DNA of 37,028 bases from a virus (lineage: Duplodnaviria > Heunggongvirae > Uroviricota > Caudoviricetes): IMG/VR virus record IMGVR_UViG_2690316076_000004; one strand, given 5' to 3'. Positions within the stretch are counted from its first letter, which is position 1. Each line of letters starts with the position of its first letter. The notes below the pieces were generated by a model, which did not search any database, was not told the origin of the DNA, and was given only the letters and a program-made list of their open reading frames with translations. Made by a program: the position numbers and the translations under genes. Shown one piece after another: positions 1-37,028 of this stretch.

Positions 1-273
1 ATGAACATCGGTAAAGCAATCATCAACTACGCAGCACGTCGCAACATGGACATTACCTTGATTGGCGATGAGACCGTAGCGTTCTGGGAAGCGGATAACG
101 ATTGTGAATGGATGTTCTCCTACATGATTGGTAATGATGGTTTCCTCCACTTTAAAGGCAATGTGTATCTGCCGCAGGAGATTAAAGAAGAATTACCGGC
201 GTGCATCGATACAGACAAGAAGCTGAAAGAAGTAATCAACTTTATCGCTAAAGAGTTTATCAGCAAGAAGTAA
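1..273 (+). CDS. hypothetical protein (starts at window edge; possibly N-terminally truncated)
   Basis: 90-codon ORF beginning with ATG at position 1; no recognisable motif; first gene of a plus-strand run. Confidence 0.45.
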   Translation: MNIGKAIINYAARRNMDITLIGDETVAFWEADNDCEWMFSYMIGNDGFLHFKGNVYLPQEIKEELPACIDTDKKLKEVINFIAKEFISKK

Positions 274-285
274 GGCAGCAAAACA

Positions 286-672
286 ATGTTCAATATCATG
301 ATTCGTAAATTTGGTGAGATGACTTTCGAGAAAGCTGGTGTTGCGCGTACAGAAGAAGAAGCAATGGCCTTAGTTCTGGTAGCACTGAGATCATCACCTG
401 AGATTATCGACGCTGAATATGTTGCGGCTGAGGGTGAGATTAAAGAGATTAAAGCGGTAGCTAAGGAATTAGGTGTTAAAGGTTTCCGTAAGCTGAAACT
501 ATCCCGCGAGACTTATGTCATTGGACAGCAAGGACAATACCTAGATGAGAATAGCGCGATTGTCCTACTGAATAAGATCACCCGCTATGGTTTCCAGATT
601 GAGCAATATAAAACGTGTTTCGAATTATACGAAAAAGGTTTGCTGGATACTCTGACCATCGTTCGCGCTTAA
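286..672 (+). CDS. hypothetical protein
   Basis: 128-aa ORF with AAGG RBS upstream; followed by a hairpin/T-tract. Confidence 0.55.
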   Translation: MFNIMIRKFGEMTFEKAGVARTEEEAMALVLVALRSSPEIIDAEYVAAEGEIKEIKAVAKELGVKGFRKLKLSRETYVIGQQGQYLDENSAIVLLNKITRYGFQIEQYKTCFELYEKGLLDTLTIVRA

Positions 673-686
673 TTAATTTCTAATTT

Positions 687-712
687 GGTGGGTGCAATTC
701 CCACCGCTTTTT
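687..712 (+). terminator. putative intrinsic terminator
   Basis: GGTGGG-N7-CCCACC stem followed by GCTTTTT. Confidence 0.5.
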
Positions 713-980
713 AAACTGGAGAATCAAACATGTTAGCTTTTATCTCATTCGTGGGAGGTAGTCTCACAACTATGATTAGTCTTTCTTGTCTTGTCGTTAG
801 TATGGGGTGAGCAATGAAACAATTTCATGATGGCATTTCATCTAAGACATTCAAGAAAGAATATAGCGGATTGTGTATTAACTGGATTGATTTGATTGGT
901 GCGGTTGTGTTTGGTCTGGTAATTAGCATCAATTTTTAACGATATAAATATATCGTAATTCATTCAAAGAGGATTCAATT

Positions 981-1322
981 ATGAAAAAGACTATCTACGC
1001 AATTATTGTTTCTGTGTGTGTTGGTGGCATCGGTGGATTTGTTTGTGGGTATGACTATTCCGATACTCAACATCAAGAGACTATCCGGTCAAATAAGGCC
1101 GAGATTAAGGATCTGAATCAGGAGATTAGCCAGTTAGAAAATGCTCTCTCACTCAAAGACAGTGAATATAGCGAGGTTTATGCAGATAAACAAAAATATT
1201 GGAAAGAGAAAGATAATCTCGTTGTTTACGGGATGAAATTGTGTAAGAGCATGAAGGACGAGCGCAGTTGTTTAATGGAACTTGCCCTTAAAGGTAACGT
1301 GACCATCGACTTCAAAGACTAA
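981..1322 (+). CDS. membrane-anchored coiled-coil protein (i-spanin-like or superinfection-exclusion-like)
   Basis: N-terminal hydrophobic helix (IYAIIVSVCVGGIGGFVCG) then coiled-coil-type region; AAGAGGA RBS. Confidence 0.55.
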   Translation: MKKTIYAIIVSVCVGGIGGFVCGYDYSDTQHQETIRSNKAEIKDLNQEISQLENALSLKDSEYSEVYADKQKYWKEKDNLVVYGMKLCKSMKDERSCLMELALKGNVTIDFKD

Positions 1323-1351
1323 TTAATTCAAATAACAAAGAGGATTCTATT

Positions 1352-1597
1352 ATGAAAAAGATTATCGCTGGTATCGTTCTTGCTCTGGGTTTGGTTGGTG
1401 CTGCAAATGCCGAACAATATGTACAGGGTGATAGTGTCAAGCGTGCTGCCGTTGCACCTTCTTTAAATCAACTGTGTACTGAATTAGCACAGGTTGCCGG
1501 AGTTGGTGACGATGACGACTTTATTACTGCGTGTGTATGGAGTCATATCGAGGATATTAATAAACGTGATGCAAAACTAACTGGAAAGAAATATTAA
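1352..1597 (+). CDS. small secreted protein with signal peptide
   Basis: MKKIIAGIVLALGLVGAANA-E signal-peptide pattern with AxA site; 3 Cys in mature part; no lipobox Cys; same leader/RBS as the 981 gene. Confidence 0.55.
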   Translation: MKKIIAGIVLALGLVGAANAEQYVQGDSVKRAAVAPSLNQLCTELAQVAGVGDDDDFITACVWSHIEDINKRDAKLTGKKY

Positions 1598-1613
1598 TGA
1601 CTTACTAACCAAT

Positions 1614-1653
1614 GCCCCTATCGTTATAATACGCGGTAGGGGCGTTTTTGTTT
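1614..1653 (+). terminator. putative intrinsic terminator
   Basis: GCCCCTA...TAGGGGC stem followed by GTTTTTGTTT. Confidence 0.5.
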
Positions 1654-1662
1654 GGAAATGGT

Positions 1663-3342
1663 ATGAAAACTAAACTGTATTCGTATATTCGCTTCTCGTC
1701 TATGCGTCAGAATGATGGTTCGAGTTATGAACGACAAATCAGGATGGCGAGAGAGGTTGCGGCAAAGTATGACCTTGAACTGGTAAATGATTATCAGGAT
1801 CTGGGTGTATCTGCGTTTAAGGGTGCTAACTCTAAAACAGGGGCGCTATCTCGTTTCCTTGATGCAATTGGTAGATCCGTTCCTGTTGGTAGCTGGCTAT
1901 TCATTGAAAACTTGGACCGCTTATCCCGTGCCGATATTGTCAGTGCGCAGGAGTTATTCCTTTCAATCATCCGTAGGGGGATAACCATTGTTACTGGCAT
2001 GGATAACAAGATCTACTCGCTGGATACTGTTACCGCTAACCCGATGGACCTGATGTTCTCCATCCTTTTATTCATCCGTGGTAATGAGGAAAGCCAGACT
2101 AAGCGCAATCGTACTAACTCAAGCGCACTGATTAAGATTAAAGCTCATCAAGAAAATCCACAAAATCCGGCAGTGGCAATCGAGGAAGTTGGAAAGAATA
2201 TGTGGTGGACTGATACCACTTCCGGTTATGTGTTGCCTCATCCTACATACTTCCCTGTTGTTCAGGAGATTGTGGAATTACGGAAGAATGGACGTTCAAC
2301 CGCCGAAATACTGGATCACCTTAACGAGACATATACACCGCCACCAGCAGTAAGCAACAAGAAGCATTCAAAATGGTCACGGGCAATGGTTGAAAGGTTG
2401 TTCCATACCCGCGCTTTGATTGGTATCAAGGAAGTCTCTGTAGATGGTGTTAACTATGAGTTAAAGGATTATTACCCTCGTGTTATTGATGATGCTACGT
2501 TCTATCACCTTAAGAAAAATATTGGTGCTAGAGCATGGAACTTTGGAGACAAGGAAGAAGTTAAACCGATCCCCCTGCTTAGTGGTATTGGCCTATTGAA
2601 ATGTGATCATTGCGGTTGCGCTATGGTTAAAGTGAAGGGAACGAACAAACGTTCTGACCAGTATCGTTATACATGTGATGCGACCCGTTCACGTAGACTT
2701 GATTGCGAGCATCCAAACTGGAGTTTTCGAGGTGATCAATTAGAGAAAGCTGTATTGCAATTGCTGGCTGATAAAATATGGATTGCTGAGGACAAGGCTA
2801 ATCCGGTTCCGGCGTTGAAAGTACAGGTTGATGAAATATCACGCAAGATTGATAACCTGATTGCCCTTTCTGCTATGACAGGAGCAACGAAGGAGCTAGC
2901 CGATCAGATTACTACCCTCAATAGCGAGCGTGAAACACTCTACAATCAGATCAAGATGGCAGAAGAGGAAATGTATTCTGTGGACTCTCAAGGCTGGGAG
3001 AAGCTCGCAGAATTTGATTTAGAAGATGTTTATAACGAGGAACGACTAAAGGTCCGGTTTAAGATTAAGCAAGCTCTAAAGCGGATCGGGTGTAGCAGGA
3101 TTGACAGAAACAAAAACTTGTTTGTACTGGAATACATCGATGGAAAAACCCAGAGAGTTGTAATAGAAAATTCAAGAGGAACGAGGAAAGGCCGGATCTT
3201 CATTGATTTGAAGACTATCAATGATAGGCAGATTCTGGAGAGCAACGGGCTTGTTCTGCATCCATGTTTAGACATGCTGACAGATAAGAACTGGAAACCA
3301 GAAGAGGAAATACCAGGTCCATTACAGGAATTTGGAATTTAA
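1663..3342 (+). CDS. large serine recombinase (resolvase/integrase family)
   Basis: N-terminal resolvase catalytic pattern (YSYIRFSS...Q), recombinase domain, Cys-rich zinc ribbon (CDHCGC...CDATRSRRLDCEH), C-terminal coiled-coil; track start at 1648 is TTG, ATG at 1663 preferred. Confidence 0.85.
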   Translation: MKTKLYSYIRFSSMRQNDGSSYERQIRMAREVAAKYDLELVNDYQDLGVSAFKGANSKTGALSRFLDAIGRSVPVGSWLFIENLDRLSRADIVSAQELFLSIIRRGITIVTGMDNKIYSLDTVTANPMDLMFSILLFIRGNEESQTKRNRTNSSALIKIKAHQENPQNPAVAIEEVGKNMWWTDTTSGYVLPHPTYFPVVQEIVELRKNGRSTAEILDHLNETYTPPPAVSNKKHSKWSRAMVERLFHTRALIGIKEVSVDGVNYELKDYYPRVIDDATFYHLKKNIGARAWNFGDKEEVKPIPLLSGIGLLKCDHCGCAMVKVKGTNKRSDQYRYTCDATRSRRLDCEHPNWSFRGDQLEKAVLQLLADKIWIAEDKANPVPALKVQVDEISRKIDNLIALSAMTGATKELADQITTLNSERETLYNQIKMAEEEMYSVDSQGWEKLAEFDLEDVYNEERLKVRFKIKQALKRIGCSRIDRNKNLFVLEYIDGKTQRVVIENSRGTRKGRIFIDLKTINDRQILESNGLVLHPCLDMLTDKNWKPEEEIPGPLQEFGI

Positions 3343-3415: not shown

Positions 3416-4414
3416 TTAAAGAGCCTCTAAAGGGCTTAAATCGAGTTCTAAGTCTTCCGGTGTTAAATCAGCTAACGGTGCATTCATCCACTGCGATAAA
3501 TCTCGTTCTATGTCTTCATCACTAATGTAGTTGTTCAGATTGATTGCGTTGGTATCATCAAAATACATTGGCTTAGATGGGTTGATGTGGATGTATTCAT
3601 TGATGAATGATTTAACATCTTTCAGCTTGCTAATCGGTAGCGTTTCTGTGAATCCGCTATTCATTACCTTACGTGGGATTTTCTTGCCCTGAATATTCTT
3701 TTTAATCCCCATTTCTAAATCACCAGCTTTCCATCCAATGTTAAACAAATGTGAGCATTCAAAGGTGATTTTCTCGCTGGTGTGCTTCTGGTGTTCTCTT
3801 ACCCGTTGCATCGGATCTTTGCGAGTGGTAATTCCATATTTGAAAAACTTCTCGCCAACACGAATTAGATAAAAGTGCATAGGGCGCTGTGCAAACTTGT
3901 TTCTGATAACCTGTTTTCTACCATTCTGAATTGATTTAAGTACACCCCTAACCAAAGGGCATGTTAACCCGCCTTGTCTGCGGTTATTGTGTAAATCACC
4001 TTTCTTGTGAATCTTTCCGTGGCACTTACAACGAAGAATTAGTTTAGTGTCAACACCCTGATAAGGTTCAGCCAGACCTAACACATCCCACCCTATCGGC
4101 TTGTAGAACTTGCGAGCGTTTTCTAAGTGTTCTTCTTCGGTAAATCTAAACTTCTTCTTAGGCGGTGATACTCTATCTTTGCCAGTAAACTGACCAGTTA
4201 GAACATGACTAATACATGGCGTTTTAACCTTTCCATTAACTTCTATGCAAACTTTAGTGTTCTGGAATGGTTTCTTTACAGGAAGCACAAAACCACTGTA
4301 TAACCATCCATGCGCTTGACAAACTTTAATGATTCTGGTTTCATATTCGACCGGAGGGGTCGCACGTTTGCTTTTTGCGGTAAATTCGATATCCTTTGCT
4401 AAAGTAGTATTCAT
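3416..4414 (-). CDS. T5orf172 (GIY-YIG-like) domain protein with Cys/His cluster; putative homing-endonuclease-like DNA-binding protein
   Basis: segment HFYLIRVGEKFFKYGITTR...MQRVREH resembles T5orf172/GIY-YIG-like fold; CKCHGKIHKKGDLH...CPL Cys/His cluster; family assignment from memory. Confidence 0.5.
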   Translation of the reverse strand: MNTTLAKDIEFTAKSKRATPPVEYETRIIKVCQAHGWLYSGFVLPVKKPFQNTKVCIEVNGKVKTPCISHVLTGQFTGKDRVSPPKKKFRFTEEEHLENARKFYKPIGWDVLGLAEPYQGVDTKLILRCKCHGKIHKKGDLHNNRRQGGLTCPLVRGVLKSIQNGRKQVIRNKFAQRPMHFYLIRVGEKFFKYGITTRKDPMQRVREHQKHTSEKITFECSHLFNIGWKAGDLEMGIKKNIQGKKIPRKVMNSGFTETLPISKLKDVKSFINEYIHINPSKPMYFDDTNAINLNNYISDEDIERDLSQWMNAPLADLTPEDLELDLSPLEAL

Positions 4415-27191: not shown

Positions 27192-29099
27192 TTAGAACGA
27201 TGTTACCCAGCTACGGCCTCTATTTGGGCGTCTGGCGATGTTTTGACGTTGCGGTCGTGTGATTGGCTTAGTTTCTTCTATTTGCTCGTCAGATTGCGAT
27301 TTAGGAGCTTCTACGGATTCTTCGACAACACGGTTTAAGCTGTCTTTCATTGCAATGAGTTTATCCCATGACATTTTTGAAAGAACGTAGCGAGAAGCAG
27401 CATAGCTATAAACCAGACAGTCGAGAGCCTCGTTTCGGGTACTACCTGGATTTTTCACCCAACGCACGCCAGTAGTAGTACGCTTGATGGATTCACTCAA
27501 AAGCTGATCGAGATAATCATCAGGAACGGTTTCTGATATTTCTAAGCCAATATGAGGATTATCTTTCAGGTTTCTAACCAGCATTTCACGAACAGCGGAT
27601 TTCCCAACGTTAACACCCAGCATAAGCAATTCATGACCACCTGTACGGGTAGGTTTAACCGGAATCACTGGAGCATTACCAGATGAACTACCTTTGATAG
27701 CGTGTAGGTTCTTCCACTTGCCGCAAATACGGTATCCGGCTTGAGTGAATCGACCGTTCGATGTATCAAGGAAACTGGCGAGCATTGGTACACGTTCACC
27801 ATTAACGTTATAGAATTTGGTTTTCTTGAAGTTAACCAGACGATCCCAAACAGGTGATTCATATCGTTCACAGTTATGATCGTAAAAGCTGCGGTGATCC
27901 AGAATGTAAACCTTATCTTTCGCTACACCTAAGATGGTAGATTCTGCGCGGTCCAATTGCTGGTCAATTCCTGAGCACAAGAAAATCACGTCATCAGGGA
28001 TATTCTCGATAGAAACATCTGTTTTGAGTTGTTCCAGTTCATTTGCTTCTACTGCCGTGTCCTGATCGTCGTATACCTTGCCTAACACGGTGTTATAAAA
28101 TGATTGTAAATCAAAGGATTGCCACGCATGGCTAAAATCAACAACACAAGCGCGGATCGTGCTGAAAGGTGAATACAGACGGCTAATCCAGAATCCAGCT
28201 ACTTCACTTTCTCTCGTTACTCGCCATTCACCAGCAGCCACCGCCCTGATCCGCTCTCCTTCTGTCCATGCGTTCTTACAGTGGGGGCAAATATAACGAG
28301 CGGTATCAGGATCGGGTAAGTTCTTACCATCGATGTTACGCCATTCAAATTGAACGTTTTCCCACTCGATCACCTGGTGTTCCCCGCAATGAGGACACGG
28401 AACAAAAAACATACGCATATCGCTTGATAACCATTGCTGGTTAATGCTTCCGAGCTTACTGGTCGGGGTGCTGGATACGACTAATCGACCTTCATCGCCA
28501 AAGGTAGTTAAACGGTTAGCAGCCAGTGCCACCGGATCACCTTCTTCTGAGGCTGTAGCAGCATCGATTTCGTCAAGTAATCCAACCTTTGCGGTCTTAC
28601 CGCGTAGGGTTGATGGACTGGTAAGCGATACCATGTAAAGGAAGTGATTCGTTTTTAGCTGTAGCTGGTTATTGTTGTTAACCGCATTGCGATCATTCTT
28701 GTCTGTAACAACGTCTTTTAATGCATCACATGCTTCGATAGACGGTCGGATCTTACCAGCGAGATATTGAGACATTTCTTTAGCGGTTGATTGTCCGATA
28801 ATCATATTGCATGGATCGTTAGCCATCTGGTTAAACAGGATACCGTTCAGGATGGTAGTCTTTCCGATCTGTGCACTGGTCATCAGGACATACTTTTTCT
28901 TGTTCTCAAGGAAAGGTGCATCAATCATGCCTTTTTGGAATGACAACAATTTAACTTTATCCCCAGCTTGAGGACCATCTACCAGCACCATATTCGCTTC
29001 GCACCATTCAGACGGAAGGAGTTTAGGCGGTGGAGTGATATATTTTGCGGCATTTTTAAGAATCTTTTTTAATTTGGCCTTGTTCGAAATCAGTTTCAT
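27192..29099 (-). CDS. terminase large subunit, lambda gpA-like
   Basis: [26 protein letters not shown] (Walker A-like), [21 protein letters not shown] all mirror remembered gpA motifs; ATG at 29099 with GAGGG RBS preferred over track start 29174. Confidence 0.93.
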
Positions 29100-29142
29100 G
29101 TAATTACCCTCATTACGAAATATGAAGGTATTTATTAAATTG

Positions 29143-29170
29143 TTGATATTTTGATAAATACGGGTATTAA
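29143..29170 (+). promoter_or_regulatory. candidate sigma70-type promoter in divergent terL/HTH-gene intergenic region
   Basis: TTGATA (29143-29148), 16-nt spacer, TATTAA (29165-29170), about 15 nt upstream of the 29185 ATG. Confidence 0.35.
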
Positions 29171-29184
29171 TCAAAGGGGGTTGT

Positions 29185-29815: not shown

Positions 29816-30046
29816 ATGACTATGACTACTAAAGCTACTCGCGGTCGTCCTTGCCGTTTTGATCGTGAACAACTGGCAGCGATTGTAAAAGCGTACTATC
29901 AAGCACCGAAAGGTAAAGCCGAAAAAGAGCAAGTATTGAGTGAACACGGTATTTCAATCGCTCAATTCTACAAATCACTCCATAAAGTTGATTTGAAATT
30001 CTTTGTTCAGGTTGACGGTGAAATGGTAGAAGCAACAGGAATTTGA
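29816..30046 (+). CDS. small HTH protein, paralog of 33578-33757
   Basis: RGRPCRFDREQL ... GISIAQFYKSL parallels MARPVKFTREMI ... GIDRSGFYKLM in the 33578 gene; GGAG RBS. Confidence 0.5.
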   Translation: MTMTTKATRGRPCRFDREQLAAIVKAYYQAPKGKAEKEQVLSEHGISIAQFYKSLHKVDLKFFVQVDGEMVEATGI

Positions 30047-30086: not shown

Positions 30087-30314
30087 CGCTCAAAACTGAG
30101 CACATCTCTAAGTCATTGATTCTTCCGATGAGTCCAGATTTGGACTGATCTATAGATGCCCTCAAAACTGAGGAGATGTGCTTAAAGTTCAGCGTATCTA
30201 TCTAAGTGGTTGATTCTTTCGAGAAATTCAAACTTGAATCAATCGGCGCAAAACTGCGCTCATCTCTAACCTATTGATTCTTCCGATAAATCCAAATCTG
30301 GATGCATCAGATAC
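30087..30314. repeat. three-unit degenerate repeat (~70-85 bp each) with IHF-consensus motifs and short palindromes
   Basis: units start CAAAACTG(A/C)G; each contains ATTGATTCTT whose complement fits WATCAANNNNTTR, followed by GTCCAGATTTGGAC / ATTCAAACTTGAAT / ATCCAAATCTGGAT near-palindromes. Confidence 0.7.
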
Positions 30315-32185: not shown

Positions 32186-32766
32186 AGTGGTATCCTCTAA
32201 AAAGAAAGTGAATCAATCTAATATTATTTATAAAGAGAAAATTCTTGTTATTATGAAAGGTGATTGGATTCAGTCGGCTTCGCCTCCTTCATGATTTTTG
32301 ATTAAATCATCGTCAAAACGAAGAAGTATCTTTAGAATATAAGAATCTTTCTTTTGGAGAAATAATAATCAGGAAGCAATTTAGCAACCGAAGGTTGCAA
32401 TCCCGAAGGGATACCAATACCTTTCATGATCATTAAAGTGATTATTACTATCTTTCTAGAATCAGTTAGTAACTAGTTTAAAATCCCTTTCGAGAAAATC
32501 CTTTCAGAAGTGATTCTCGATGCCACGCAGTGGCGTCGCAGACGTTTGAGAGTGAGCGAAGCGAGCGAGCAAACTAGTTAATTCCTTCTAAGACCATCTA
32601 GTATCATCTAGTTTAAATTAGTTGTTACTAGAAGCAATTGGTTGGCGCTTCGCGCAGTCGGGCTAAAGCCCTCCTAATATCTTTCTGGTTATTTGTTGTT
32701 TTTAGTTTTACACATGAGCGTAGCGAATGTGTTATATAATATCTATGCACGCCGAATCCCTGCTTT

Positions 32767-33010
32767 TGCCCCTCGCTAAGTTAATGTTTTATAAAGAGTT
32801 TTTCTCACCAATTCCTTTCAGGGGCAAATTTCAGGGGCAAAAATTAGATTTTCAGGGGCAATTATTGGCATTTCAGGGGCAAAAATGAGGGGCAAAATCA
32901 CCGTTTCCCAGAATTTCAGGGGCAAAAATATAGGGTTTCAGGGGCAAAAATGGGATGTGGAATCTAGGGGATTTTGGTTCAGGGGCAAAAATTCAGAATT
33001 TCAGGGGCAA
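32767..33010. repeat. iteron-like array of TTCAGGGGCAA
   Basis: exact 11-mers at 32817, 32830, 32851, 32872, 32915, 32937, 32978, 33000, variants at 32886 and ~32963, one inverted core at 32767-32775; spacing mostly 21-22 bp or multiples. Confidence 0.85.
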
Positions 33011-33100
33011 TTCCCATCAAATATTTTGATAGAAAATTCCTGTATATTATTTAATCAAAAAATCACCAAAAAGCGGCGTAAGTTAATGATTTAAAAAGAA

Positions 33101-33126
33101 TTGTCAAAAGGTCTCCGTGCTATAAT
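33101..33126 (+). promoter_or_regulatory. possible extended -10 promoter
   Basis: TTGTCA then TGC-TATAAT (TGnTATAAT) at 33118-33126; -35 spacing suboptimal (14 nt). Confidence 0.3.
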
Positions 33127-33206
33127 AGGTTATAAAGGTTGATAATCCTGCTCTACCATTTTCAAACAAAAATTTTGATAGTCATTTCTCGCTTAGGTCA
33201 AGTGTA

Positions 33207-33235
33207 TTGACAACTGTCAAGGATTATTTTATACT
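33207..33235 (+). promoter_or_regulatory. strong sigma70-type promoter
   Basis: TTGACA (33207-33212), 17-nt spacer, TATACT (33230-33235); overlaps TTGACAA/TGTCAA near-palindrome. Confidence 0.5.
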
Positions 33236-33371
33236 TTTTCTCACTGGTGGGGGTTGAAATTTTCTAAACAGTCCCCATATAGATGATAAGCAAGAATTTC
33301 CACGTTATAAATACATGTGTGAAATGATTGTTCACTTCTGAAAATCTCCTGATTCACTGCTAATTCATACA

Positions 33372-33400
33372 GCACTGGTTAGATATACAGTGCTTTTTCG
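33372..33400 (+). terminator. hairpin + T-tract (leader terminator/attenuator 1)
   Basis: AGCACTG-GTTAGATATA-CAGTGCT followed by TTTT. Confidence 0.4.
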
Positions 33401-33457
33401 GTTGAATATTGTACGAATTGATTAATAATTAATCTTCTCTTTAGCAATTCGTGCTCC

Positions 33458-33484
33458 CACTGATCGGATATACAGTGGTTTTAC
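33458..33484 (+). terminator. hairpin + T-tract (leader terminator/attenuator 2)
   Basis: CCACTG-ATCGGATATA-CAGTGG followed by TTTTA; same CACTG..GATATA..CAGTG architecture as 33372. Confidence 0.4.
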
Positions 33485-33523
33485 AGGGTTTTCTGAAAAT
33501 CATTTTATAAATACAAGTGTTCA

Positions 33524-33544
33524 GAGCGAAATGCTCTTTTTTAA
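33524..33544 (+). terminator. hairpin + T-tract directly upstream of small HTH gene
   Basis: AGAGC-GAAAT-GCTCT followed by TTTTTT, about 20 nt before the RBS of the 33578 gene. Confidence 0.45.
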
Positions 33545-33577
33545 GAAATTATTAATCCACATGTGAGGAATCGACTG

Positions 33578-33757
33578 ATGGCTAGACCTGTTAAGTTCAC
33601 TCGTGAAATGATTGTTGATATTGCTAAACGCTTTTACAGCGACACTGAGCGAGGCGGGGAAAACTTCTTTAAGAAGGAAGGAATTGATAGAAGCGGATTC
33701 TACAAGCTAATGAAGAAATACGAAATTCAGGTAAAGATTAACGTTCAAGTTTGTTAA
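33578..33757 (+). CDS. small HTH protein, paralog of 29816-30046
   Basis: ATG at 33578 with TGAGGAA RBS (track start 33563 is GTG); sequence parallels the 76-aa protein. Confidence 0.5.
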   Translation: MARPVKFTREMIVDIAKRFYSDTERGGENFFKKEGIDRSGFYKLMKKYEIQVKINVQVC

Positions 33758-35492: not shown

Positions 35493-35777
35493 TTATTTAG
35501 TCTGTTTGAAAACAAACGTTAAAAATTCGATTAAGCAATATACCCAGAGTACGGTCATCATCAAATGCATAGCAATAGTTGGATGGAAGTTAAAAAGTGT
35601 CATACTAACTAGGCCAACAATATAAGAAATTCCTTCGACAATTAACGCAAGGCTAGCAAATGCAACAAACGCACCTAAGAATAATTCGCCTCGTTCTTTC
35701 GGTTCGGTTCCGAGTTTATAAGCAGAGATAGCAGCCAGAATAGTAATGATGACAGCATAGGTAATAAAAGTAGCCAT
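35493..35777 (-). CDS. small 3-TMD membrane protein (possible holin)
   Basis: 94 aa, three hydrophobic helices; AAGAGGA RBS; no firm family assignment. Confidence 0.5.
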   Translation of the reverse strand: MATFITYAVIITILAAISAYKLGTEPKERGELFLGAFVAFASLALIVEGISYIVGLVSMTLFNFHPTIAMHLMMTVLWVYCLIEFLTFVFKQTK

Positions 35778-35871: not shown

Positions 35872-36426
35872 TTAAGACACATCAAATTCATCGTCTTCAT
35901 CTGGTTCTTGTTCCGGTTCATCGATTAATGGTAATTCTTCTTCCTCGTCTTCTCCCAAATCCGCATTTTCGAACAAGTCCCCTACTTCATTTAAACGACG
36001 CTCGATGATCTCCCTTAGCTTATTCTTCAATGTTTTCTGGTCGGTGGCAGATTCTAAAATTTCTAAAGCATCGATTGTGGCGATCTGCAAAATAGTCTGT
36101 TTCACTTTCCCGCAATATTCCGCTAGTTCCTGTTCTACATAACCGACCGGAATCAGGAGGTTCATTGCTTCCTGGTTCTCTCGTTCGGCTGCATCTGCCA
36201 ATGCTCTCTCACGGCGTAATTTCTCTACGTCGATTTGTTCTTTGATGGAAGTGTTTTTTAACGGGTTAATGATGTTCTTTAGCACCCAATCGCAACCTTC
36301 TTTGGCTGGAACACGTCGTGTGTTGGTGTTAAATGGCAATCCCCTTTCTATCCATCGCTTACCGCCACCATTCAATGAATAGCCGTATAAACGGGAAATT
36401 TCTGTAAGGGTTAATTCTTCTTTCAT
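35872..36426 (-). CDS. terminase small subunit, lambda Nu1-like
   Basis: N-terminal LTLTEISRLYGYSLNGGGKRWIERGLPF and EKLRRERALADA resemble remembered Nu1 (QLADIFGASIRTIQNW...RGGGKG... ENEKLRRE); acidic C-terminus; GGAGGA RBS. Confidence 0.75.
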   Translation of the reverse strand: MKEELTLTEISRLYGYSLNGGGKRWIERGLPFNTNTRRVPAKEGCDWVLKNIINPLKNTSIKEQIDVEKLRRERALADAAERENQEAMNLLIPVGYVEQELAEYCGKVKQTILQIATIDALEILESATDQKTLKNKLREIIERRLNEVGDLFENADLGEDEEEELPLIDEPEQEPDEDDEFDVS

Positions 36427-36546
36427 TGGTTATCCTCCATTAAATTTGCGTAATTTTATTTATTGGTTTTACGCACAATCTAAGCGCCTAAATCGCATTC
36501 TAACGAAGGGAAAGATCCAGTAATGGTAAGGGCTAGGAAGTGGGTT

Positions 36547-36573
36547 AATAGTCGCGTAGCGACCGCGCTAGGA
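36547..36573. other. candidate cos-type cleavage region (GC-rich, partly symmetric)
   Basis: AATAGTCGCGTAGCGACCGCGCTAGGA is a GC-rich island with internal GTCGC..GCGAC symmetry, ~120 bp upstream of the Nu1-like gene start; GCGACC echoes the lambda cohesive end. Confidence 0.25.
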
Positions 36574-36722
36574 CTGCACTGATCACGTTTTAAAATCTCA
36601 CACGCGTATCAAATACCGGGGTGCCGAAAACTCCCTTTATTTCACCCGTGGAACAGTACCTTTTGATTTTGTCAAGTCTTTTTTATAAATAATCGAAAAT
36701 ATTTTTCACACGAGGGCAAATC

Positions 36723-37028
36723 ATGAAGACTAAAGATATTAAGATTGAATTTGAAACTGTTGATGACGTTCGGGAACATCGCATTGATTCTACTGGCTGC
36801 ATCTTCCAGCTTACTAACTCCCCTATTGGATTGATTATCTATGTAGCAGAAGATGACGTGTACGCTATATGGGATGGACAGGATGAGTTTAAAGGCGGGA
36901 ATAGCCATCTGATCAATACTCATGAGGGATTTGATCCGACTCCTGTCTGTATGCTTGCTTATCACGTAACACTGGATGAACTACCGGAAGCAAGCGCGCG
37001 TATCCGTAGAATGAAAGACATTAAGTGA
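36723..37028 (+). CDS. hypothetical protein
   Basis: 101-aa ORF with GAGGG RBS, preceded by TATAAATA-containing promoter-like region; stop at last bases of window. Confidence 0.55.
   Translation: MKTKDIKIEFETVDDVREHRIDSTGCIFQLTNSPIGLIIYVAEDDVYAIWDGQDEFKGGNSHLINTHEGFDPTPVCMLAYHVTLDELPEASARIRRMKDIK

Follow-up and report, generated by a model that had tools for sequence, protein, structure and literature searches.

The DNA analysed in this study, referred to as the window, is a stretch of 37,028 nucleotides, and it represents a prophage integrated in ycdX of E. coli rather than a circular genome. Its limits coincide with the first and last prophage genes. At the right end, relatives with longer flanks run on into a truncated ycdX and then ghrA, and the complete genome NZ_CP115351 (E. 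coli CUVET21-37) contains this element, about 35.6 kb long, at 2.793-2.829 Mb, with one half of ycdX on either side. We observed a large serine recombinase of 564 aa near the left end (1648-3342; phrog_95, E=1.3e-63), to which the ycdX insertion is attributed. The ends of the window are joined only upon excision, via about 85 bp carrying attP, and the preliminary description, which had considered a circular join possible in the spacer beside the small terminase gene, is ruled against by the integrated prophage with its flanking ycdX halves. The split of ycdX and the recombinase were observed over window 1-3342 and both window ends, and over 3942-4337 and 39987-40391 of L025. The vicinity of yegQ is a second insertion site, used by the relatives L071 and L089.

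With respect to distribution, the prophage was detected in 61-63 of 5426 complete E. coli genomes (about 1%), chromosomal in all cases. Salmonella and Proteus carry prophages of the same layout, and in all three genera terS stands at the prophage end with a spacer of 300-440 bp and terL about 6 kb off. Megablast, as well as tblastn with the region and TerS, revealed no close relatives among 50,697 phage records, a scan of species-representative genomes found no relative, and the literature on ycdX prophages offered nothing relevant. The only and nearest isolate with related TerL and capsid genes is phage DCP80, at 43% identity, the left end of which gave no usable cos information. The features needed for the following analysis are listed below.

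27192 to 29174, minus strand: terL, gpA-type large terminase, with a probable ATG at 29099, 6.7 kb from terS
35872 to 36426, minus strand: terS, Nu1-type small terminase subunit of 184 aa (phrog_57, E=5.7e-11)
36200 to 36426, minus strand: 5' part of terS with the winged-helix DNA-binding domain, the coding half of the exchange cassette (from the L071 comparison)
36427 to 36605, no strand: terS-proximal spacer, the non-coding half of the cassette, proposed as TerS recognition (cosB-type) and terS control region
36447 to 36475, no strand: TGCGTAA-N15-TTACGCA, an inverted pair that brackets a TAAATA box and lies 14-42 nt before the GGAGGA ribosome-binding site
36483 to 36490, minus strand: another invariant block, TAGGCGCT, which partially repeats a portion of the 16-mer in inverted orientation
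36551 to 36566, minus strand: invariant 16-mer GCGGTCGCTACGCGAC with the dyad GTCGC-TAC-GCGAC, core of the element at 36547-36573
36602 to 36607: ACGCGT palindrome (distal spacer)
36606 to 36684, no strand: distal spacer block, kept with terS and outside the cassette (window and L071 97-100% identical)
36611 to 36642: quasi-palindrome of A-tract, GC and T-tract (distal spacer)
36655 to 36661, minus strand: AGGTACT box (distal spacer)
36670 to 36675, minus strand: TTGACA box (distal spacer)
36723 to 37028, plus strand: divergent gene of 101 aa with function unassigned, the final gene of the prophage, followed by attR and the 5' half of ycdX; no Pfam or PHROG match

On profile evidence, the protein predicted from 35872-36426 is a Nu1-type TerS belonging to the same PHROG as lambda Nu1, which itself falls in phrog_57 with E=1.3e-76. 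A profile of ten members of the terS family aligned with lambda Nu1 over residues 4-92 (hhalign; 95.2% probability, E=2.5e-8), and six of the ten members matched Pfam Phage_Nu1 (PF07471; best 8.6e-5), with no match for the TerS of the window itself. The assignment as a Nu1-like gene, already made in the preliminary description, is thus borne out by phrog_57, hhalign and the Pfam matches. The AF2 model of TerS (pLDDT 70 overall) consists of a winged-helix-like N-terminus followed by long helices, with a strand-helix-helix-wing topology in residues 4-53 (pLDDT 70-80). Its best Foldseek similarities were MerR-like wHTH proteins (RacA, BmrR, GlnR), all of them non-significant (E>1), and a profile search matched 1j9i, the solved gpNu1, and 6hn7 weakly (E~0.2).

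The large subunit displays GpA_ATPase (PF05876, 1.6e-56) in its N-terminal part and GpA_nuclease (PF20454, 2.8e-44) in its C-terminal part, and it is followed by genes for a head-tail joining protein, a lambda-family portal and a protease-capsid fusion. Since TerL is of the gpA type, cos (cohesive-end) packaging is the expected mode. The distance of terS from terL is an unusual feature; the 6.7 kb between them hold mixed-strand regulatory genes and a 1.4-kb non-coding stretch, and terS heads its own two-gene operon at the right end of the prophage. Two small HTH-like proteins in this part of the window (29816-30046 and 33563-33757) harbor no detectable paralogy. The second gene, co-transcribed with terS (35493-35777), encodes a predicted membrane protein of 94 aa that is kept in most relatives examined and has no family match. 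Two TerL alleles, 55-60% identical, were recognized, and these reassort freely against the terS and spacer types (L027, L029, L030, L071). The first 35 or so residues of the TerL alleles stay similar, for example between L029 and L030.

The spacer between terS and the divergent gene harbors a GC-rich element, AATAGTCGCGTAGCGACCGCGCTAGGA, at 36547-36573, which is unique in the window even when three mismatches are allowed. It begins 121 bp from the terS ATG (36426) and spans 121-147 bp upstream, in agreement with the distance of about 120 bp first proposed for it. Its partial symmetry was likewise seen again, as two overlapping dyads, GTCGC-GTA-GCGAC and TAGCG-ACCG-CGCTA, though two dyads of 5 bp are expected in a 40-mer of this composition with p~0.06. 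The GC content of the element is 59%, a value equalled or exceeded by 4.4% of the 27-mers of the window. It had further been described as lying in otherwise AT-rich DNA; this holds only beside the two gene starts, where stretches of 25-30% GC adjoin, and not for the spacer as a whole, which has 40% GC against 41.5% for the window.

Comparison with relatives gave a clearer picture. Across 31 distinct relatives sharing this spacer type, from E. coli, Salmonella and metagenomes, GCGGTCGCTACGCGAC at 36551-36566 is the longest invariant run over 262 nt of spacer and 240 nt of coding sequence (permutation P~1.5e-4), and the positions flanking it are variable on both sides. The dyad GTCGC-TAC-GCGAC is kept among the relatives and TAGCG...CGCTA is not. 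Because it is conserved among relatives, the element is regarded as functional, above chance, its intrinsic statistics being weak alone. Between the TAGGCGCT block and the 16-mer there is an inverted match of 9/11 (CTACGCGACTA versus CTAAGCGCCTA), which is not significant alone, and within terS no second inverted copy of the 16-mer was found at up to three mismatches. A scan of IMG/VR with the 16-mer returned 35 matches, and those from outside the family lie in GC-rich coding DNA or unrelated repeats, at chance level. Two unrelated IMG/VR contigs, L046 (4636-4651) and L058 (1750-1765), display the same 16-mer in hairpin-rich non-coding DNA, in the former between tail genes and in the latter in tandem with GCGGTCGCTtCGCGAC inside a long palindrome, and CTTCACTACGCTGGTGG is common to both downstream; these copies probably represent a different repeat element or chance.

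To describe what the 16-mer follows, 48 loci were grouped by the N-terminal sequence of TerS. The 16-mer was present in 34/34 loci whose TerS carries a winged helix of the MKEE.TLTE.SRLYG...N(G/A)(G/A) type, and in none of the 14 loci with other TerS types (L071/L072, L067/L068, L084, L026/L069/L070 and L027/L028), which harbor other GC-rich sequences at the equivalent position. TerL behaves differently. L029 and L030 have identical terS and spacer sequences and both carry the 16-mer, yet their TerLs are only 60% identical; the TerLs of L030 and L027 share 96% identity across 504 residues, yet only L030 carries the 16-mer. If the TerL nuclease read this sequence as its nick site, the sequence would be expected to go with TerL or to be family-wide; it follows the DNA-binding domain of TerS. 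Because it tracks the TerS type and not TerL, it is more likely a TerS recognition (cosB-type) site than cosN. In the lambda group, cosB varies with TerS, and cosN and cosQ are common (PMC4669245).

The same association is visible in the extent of sequence exchange. The window and L071 are about 93-100% identical outside 36200-36605 and 40-65% within it (40-70% in the terS part); identity is 90-100% beyond 36195 and falls from 97-100% to 40-63% at about 36605. The reciprocal case is that of L029 and L066. Counted from the terS ATG, their identity is 87-100% between -161 and +18 and 70-87% as far as about +140 (about codon 45), against only 30-67% in the flanks. Since these two independent natural recombinants (window/L071 and L029/L066) define the same unit, sequence comparison shows that a single block is exchanged, made up of about 160-180 bp of spacer and the opening 45-76 codons of terS, with the 16-mer situated 20-50 bp inside its distal edge. 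When E. coli genomes were searched with the spacer alone, no extra copies were found in satellites or plasmids.

This arrangement can be set beside the packaging-specificity segment of phages lambda, 21 and N15, which is made up of cosB and the part of the TerS gene, at its 5' end, that encodes the HTH; cosQ and cosN are shared (PMC4669245). In both cases, non-coding DNA and the HTH-coding 5' end of terS are swapped together between otherwise near-identical phages, and the DNA just outside the block is common to the types. The two differ in that exchange in the present family is read from natural recombinants only and that no shared cosN or cosQ was identified outside the block. By these alignments, the spacer next to terS is a functional module that has been conserved and passed on together with the TerS DNA-binding domain, as would be expected of a terminase recognition region. 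Both the cassette at 36200-36605 and the 34/34 against 0/14 distribution show the co-inheritance with the TerS DNA-binding domain that is expected of cosB.

The explanation we prefer, at roughly even chances, is that this spacer serves a cos-type phage for TerS recognition and control, with the 16-mer as a cosB-type site. The spacer would thus act as the cis-acting region of the Nu1-type terS of the ycdX prophage, and the cassette block would hold the DNA sites read by the winged-helix domain, as a counterpart of lambda cosB together with the 5' end of Nu1. As the principal TerS site, in a role comparable to that of R3, the 16-mer is the strongest candidate; it is probably not the nick site. 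TerS bound at the 16-mer may position the gpA-type TerL for staggered nicks nearby, after which packaging would proceed towards terS. Two considerations weigh against this explanation, in that co-inheritance with the 5' end of the gene could reflect plain linkage and the cassette could reflect repression by TerS of its own promoter instead of packaging recognition. The lambda analogy is also inexact, given that terS is 6.7 kb from terL. Counting against it too are the negative results given below for contig ends, R-like repeats, the IHF consensus, lambda cos similarity and a family-wide block, as well as the lack of a close isolate among the phage records.

The terS-proximal part of the spacer bears on the control of terS. 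As had been proposed, TGCGTAA (36447-36453) and TTACGCA (36469-36475) lie between the element and the gene; they form a perfect 7-bp inverted pair, 15 nt apart, which is unique in the window. A perfect inverted repeat of 7 bp with a gap of up to 30 is expected 0.7 times in the shuffled spacer (p~0.42). Its right half-site, TTACGCA, is kept in 8/9 sequence groups, across TerS types and genera. Such conservation across TerS specificities would, on the sequence comparisons, be the opposite of a specificity determinant. The interpretation of the pair as cosB is accordingly not upheld, for it is kept across TerS types, overlaps TAAATA and ends about 15 nt before the ribosome-binding site. Most likely, the inverted pair over the TAAATA box is part of the promoter/operator control of terS. 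The spacer must hold the terS promoter because terS heads its own short operon, and further conserved boxes were noticed near -70 (TAGAAT/TATAAA) and near -245 (TTGACA).

These observations lend weight to a second explanation, in which the spacer serves transcription control only, with promoters that drive terS and the divergent 101-aa gene, with operators for TerS or another regulator, and cos lies elsewhere or the element no longer packages. The need of the terS operon for a promoter here, the inverted pair bracketing a -10-like TAAATA just before the ribosome-binding site, and the conserved boxes near -70 and -245 are all in its favor, as is a window without R-like repeats or an IHF site. 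It is also consistent with a family that has no known isolate and no recognisable replication genes apart from an iteron field. Nevertheless, we consider it unlikely. A sigma-70 scan found no consensus promoter, and the partner with which the block co-varies is a terminase DNA-binding domain, not a repressor gene. The other intergenic regions also offer no better cos candidate. To our knowledge, all well-studied Nu1/gpA phages have cos immediately upstream of Nu1, a position which likewise speaks against placing cos elsewhere. In the lambda group, too, cos lies directly upstream of Nu1 (PMC4669245).

As for those other regions, three candidates for cos were rejected: the terL-upstream spacer is AT-rich and promoter-like, the 1.4-kb gap harbors iterons and no block common to the family, and the remaining GC-rich intergenic spots are terminator-type hairpins.

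If the order cosQ-cosN-cosB-terS known from lambda applies, cosN would be expected in the distal block at 36606-36684. The architecture of this block recurs in the Salmonella and Proteus relatives, and similarity to relatives with a different neighbour gene stops at 36676-36684. A GGGTG/GGGTC motif at 36645-36652 shows what we take to be only a 5-mer resemblance to the 7-bp cosQ. Within the spacer, cosN was not located; the candidates are a site in or beside the 16-mer, or the quasi-palindrome at 36611-36642. The spacer contains no block of at least 9 nt common to all relatives, so that a family-wide cosN is not visible.

Structural and similarity searches were likewise negative. RNAalifold gave no consensus hairpin for the conserved GTTTCG block, the hairpin fold of the window sequence is no better than those of shuffles (z=0.09), and Rfam had no match in the window as a whole or, at sensitive settings, in the spacer. 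Local alignments with lambda cos were not significant (p=0.12 and p=0.96), and matches to the lambda-type cohesive end GGGCGGCGACCT with up to two mismatches occur only inside coding DNA, at chance level. The IHF consensus WATCAANNNNTTR was absent from 36427-36722, and R-like repeats show no excess in the window spacer (p=0.57), so the composition of a complex cosB, in which an IHF site separates R3 from R2 in a set of three R repeats, was not observed in the window. No contig ends at or near the element were detected in IMG/VR, the JGI/ENA metagenomes or Logan. Several contigs, 35.5-36.7 kb long, stop some 390 bp upstream of terS, at what we take to be the prophage boundary.

A third explanation, advanced in the preliminary description, takes 36547-36573 as cosN nicked by TerL and the TGCGTAA/TTACGCA pair as cosB. 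The GC-rich and partly dyad-symmetric nature of the element, its position 121-147 bp upstream of a Nu1-type terS, the strong purifying selection on its 16-bp core and the gpA-type TerL all agree with it. We nonetheless regard it as rather improbable. The core is confined to one TerS wHTH type and is absent from all the loci with other TerS types named above; a nick site would be common to phages with closely related TerLs, and this one is missing from L027 despite the 96% TerL identity to L030, and is shared by L029 and L030 at 60%. The core is moreover part of the block that moves together with the TerS DNA-binding domain, as cosB does in the lambda group (PMC4669245), and the inverted pair, kept across TerS types, is unlike a specificity site. 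What stands of the proposed lambda-like cos arrangement upstream of Nu1 is the neighbourhood, that is, a Nu1 TerS, a gpA TerL and a module tracking TerS; the labels given to its sub-sites probably do not stand. A match to lambda itself is contradicted by the lack of sequence similarity to lambda cos, of an IHF consensus and of significant R-like repeats in the window.

It is very improbable that chance alone put the element and the inverted pair into an ordinary spacer, for the modest values for the inverted repeat (p~0.42), the dyads (p~0.06) and the GC content (top 4.4%) would allow it, but the invariant 16-nt run (P~1.5e-4), the recurrence of the cassette boundaries in two independent recombinants and the conservation of the half-site across genera oppose it.

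Returning to the TerS recognition and control region as the preferred explanation, its resemblance to known systems is partial. The cos-Nu1-A region of lambda shares with the present locus a Nu1-family TerS with an N-terminal winged helix, a gpA-family TerL, a conserved non-coding module of about 250 bp immediately upstream of terS and, 120-190 bp from the start codon, an element that is GC-rich and partly symmetric. The present locus differs in showing neither similarity to lambda cos nor, outside coding DNA, a lambda-like cohesive end, and it lacks an IHF consensus and triple R repeats; its terS is not followed by terL, being placed in a two-gene operon of its own at the prophage end. The simple cosB of the N15 type, with one critical R3 site, is comparable to the type I spacer found here, as both have one dominant site, invariant in our case, with no obvious triple repeat, though the 16-mer is dyad-symmetric, unlike N15. 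Phages P2 and 186 also have non-adjacent small and large terminase genes and a cos that is not beside terL, but both terminase subunits of the present prophage are lambda-type. In P2, gpM and gpP belong to other families, and the cohesive end measures 19 nt.

The arrangement is a further case of the known Nu1/gpA cos layout with a modest twist, since terS and the recognition cassette are beside attP and unlinked from terL. It is conceivable, though we hold it doubtful, that an undescribed serine-integrase prophage family in ycdX (E. coli, Salmonella and Proteus) has its recognition module beside attP, 6.7 kb from terL, and swaps it as a cassette, with two TerL alleles reassorting freely and the choice of nick site set almost entirely by TerS binding. 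If the ends of virion DNA map here, a packaging origin would be defined for an uncharacterised family of prophages carried by about 1% of complete E. coli genomes, and natural cosB/TerS specificity cassettes would be recognized outside the classical lambda group. This would also help to predict cross-packaging prophages and satellites and make cos calling in prophage annotation more reliable, though the current understanding of the terminase mechanism would be unchanged.

Some further observations were made in relatives and elsewhere in the window. In the Salmonella locus L027 (7858-7940), three direct repeats of CC(C)TTAcAGCGCC were noticed at -143, -113 and -74 from the terS ATG. L027 has 17 repeat pairs (2.85 in shuffles). 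No R-site-like array in the family is clearer, and this one, found at the corresponding place, resembles a complex cosB and speaks for the preferred explanation.

The stretch of 1.4 kb at 32186-33562 is without convincing genes and has a similar size in all relatives. It harbors nine direct copies of xAGGGGCAA (TTCAGGGGCAAA-type iterons) at 32819-33002, with one inverted copy at 32766, and this iteron field looks like a replication origin; apart from it, no recognisable replication genes were found in the prophage family. A cluster of short GC hairpins at 32380-32700 resembles in style the initial 1.2 kb of phage DCP80.

Between terL and a divergent gene of 200 aa lies a spacer of 85 bp (29100-29184; TTAATACCCGTATTTAT...TTAATAAATACCTTCAT), which is near-identical from E. 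coli to Proteus, conserved far beyond its flanking genes, and probably represents the late promoter and a control site. Downstream of a Rha/Ant-like gene, three exact matches to WATCAANNNNTTR fall within 170 bp (30109-30279) of a 304-bp spacer. Another match to this IHF consensus occurs in the terL-upstream spacer at 29136, and the window as a whole holds seven against 3.7 expected.
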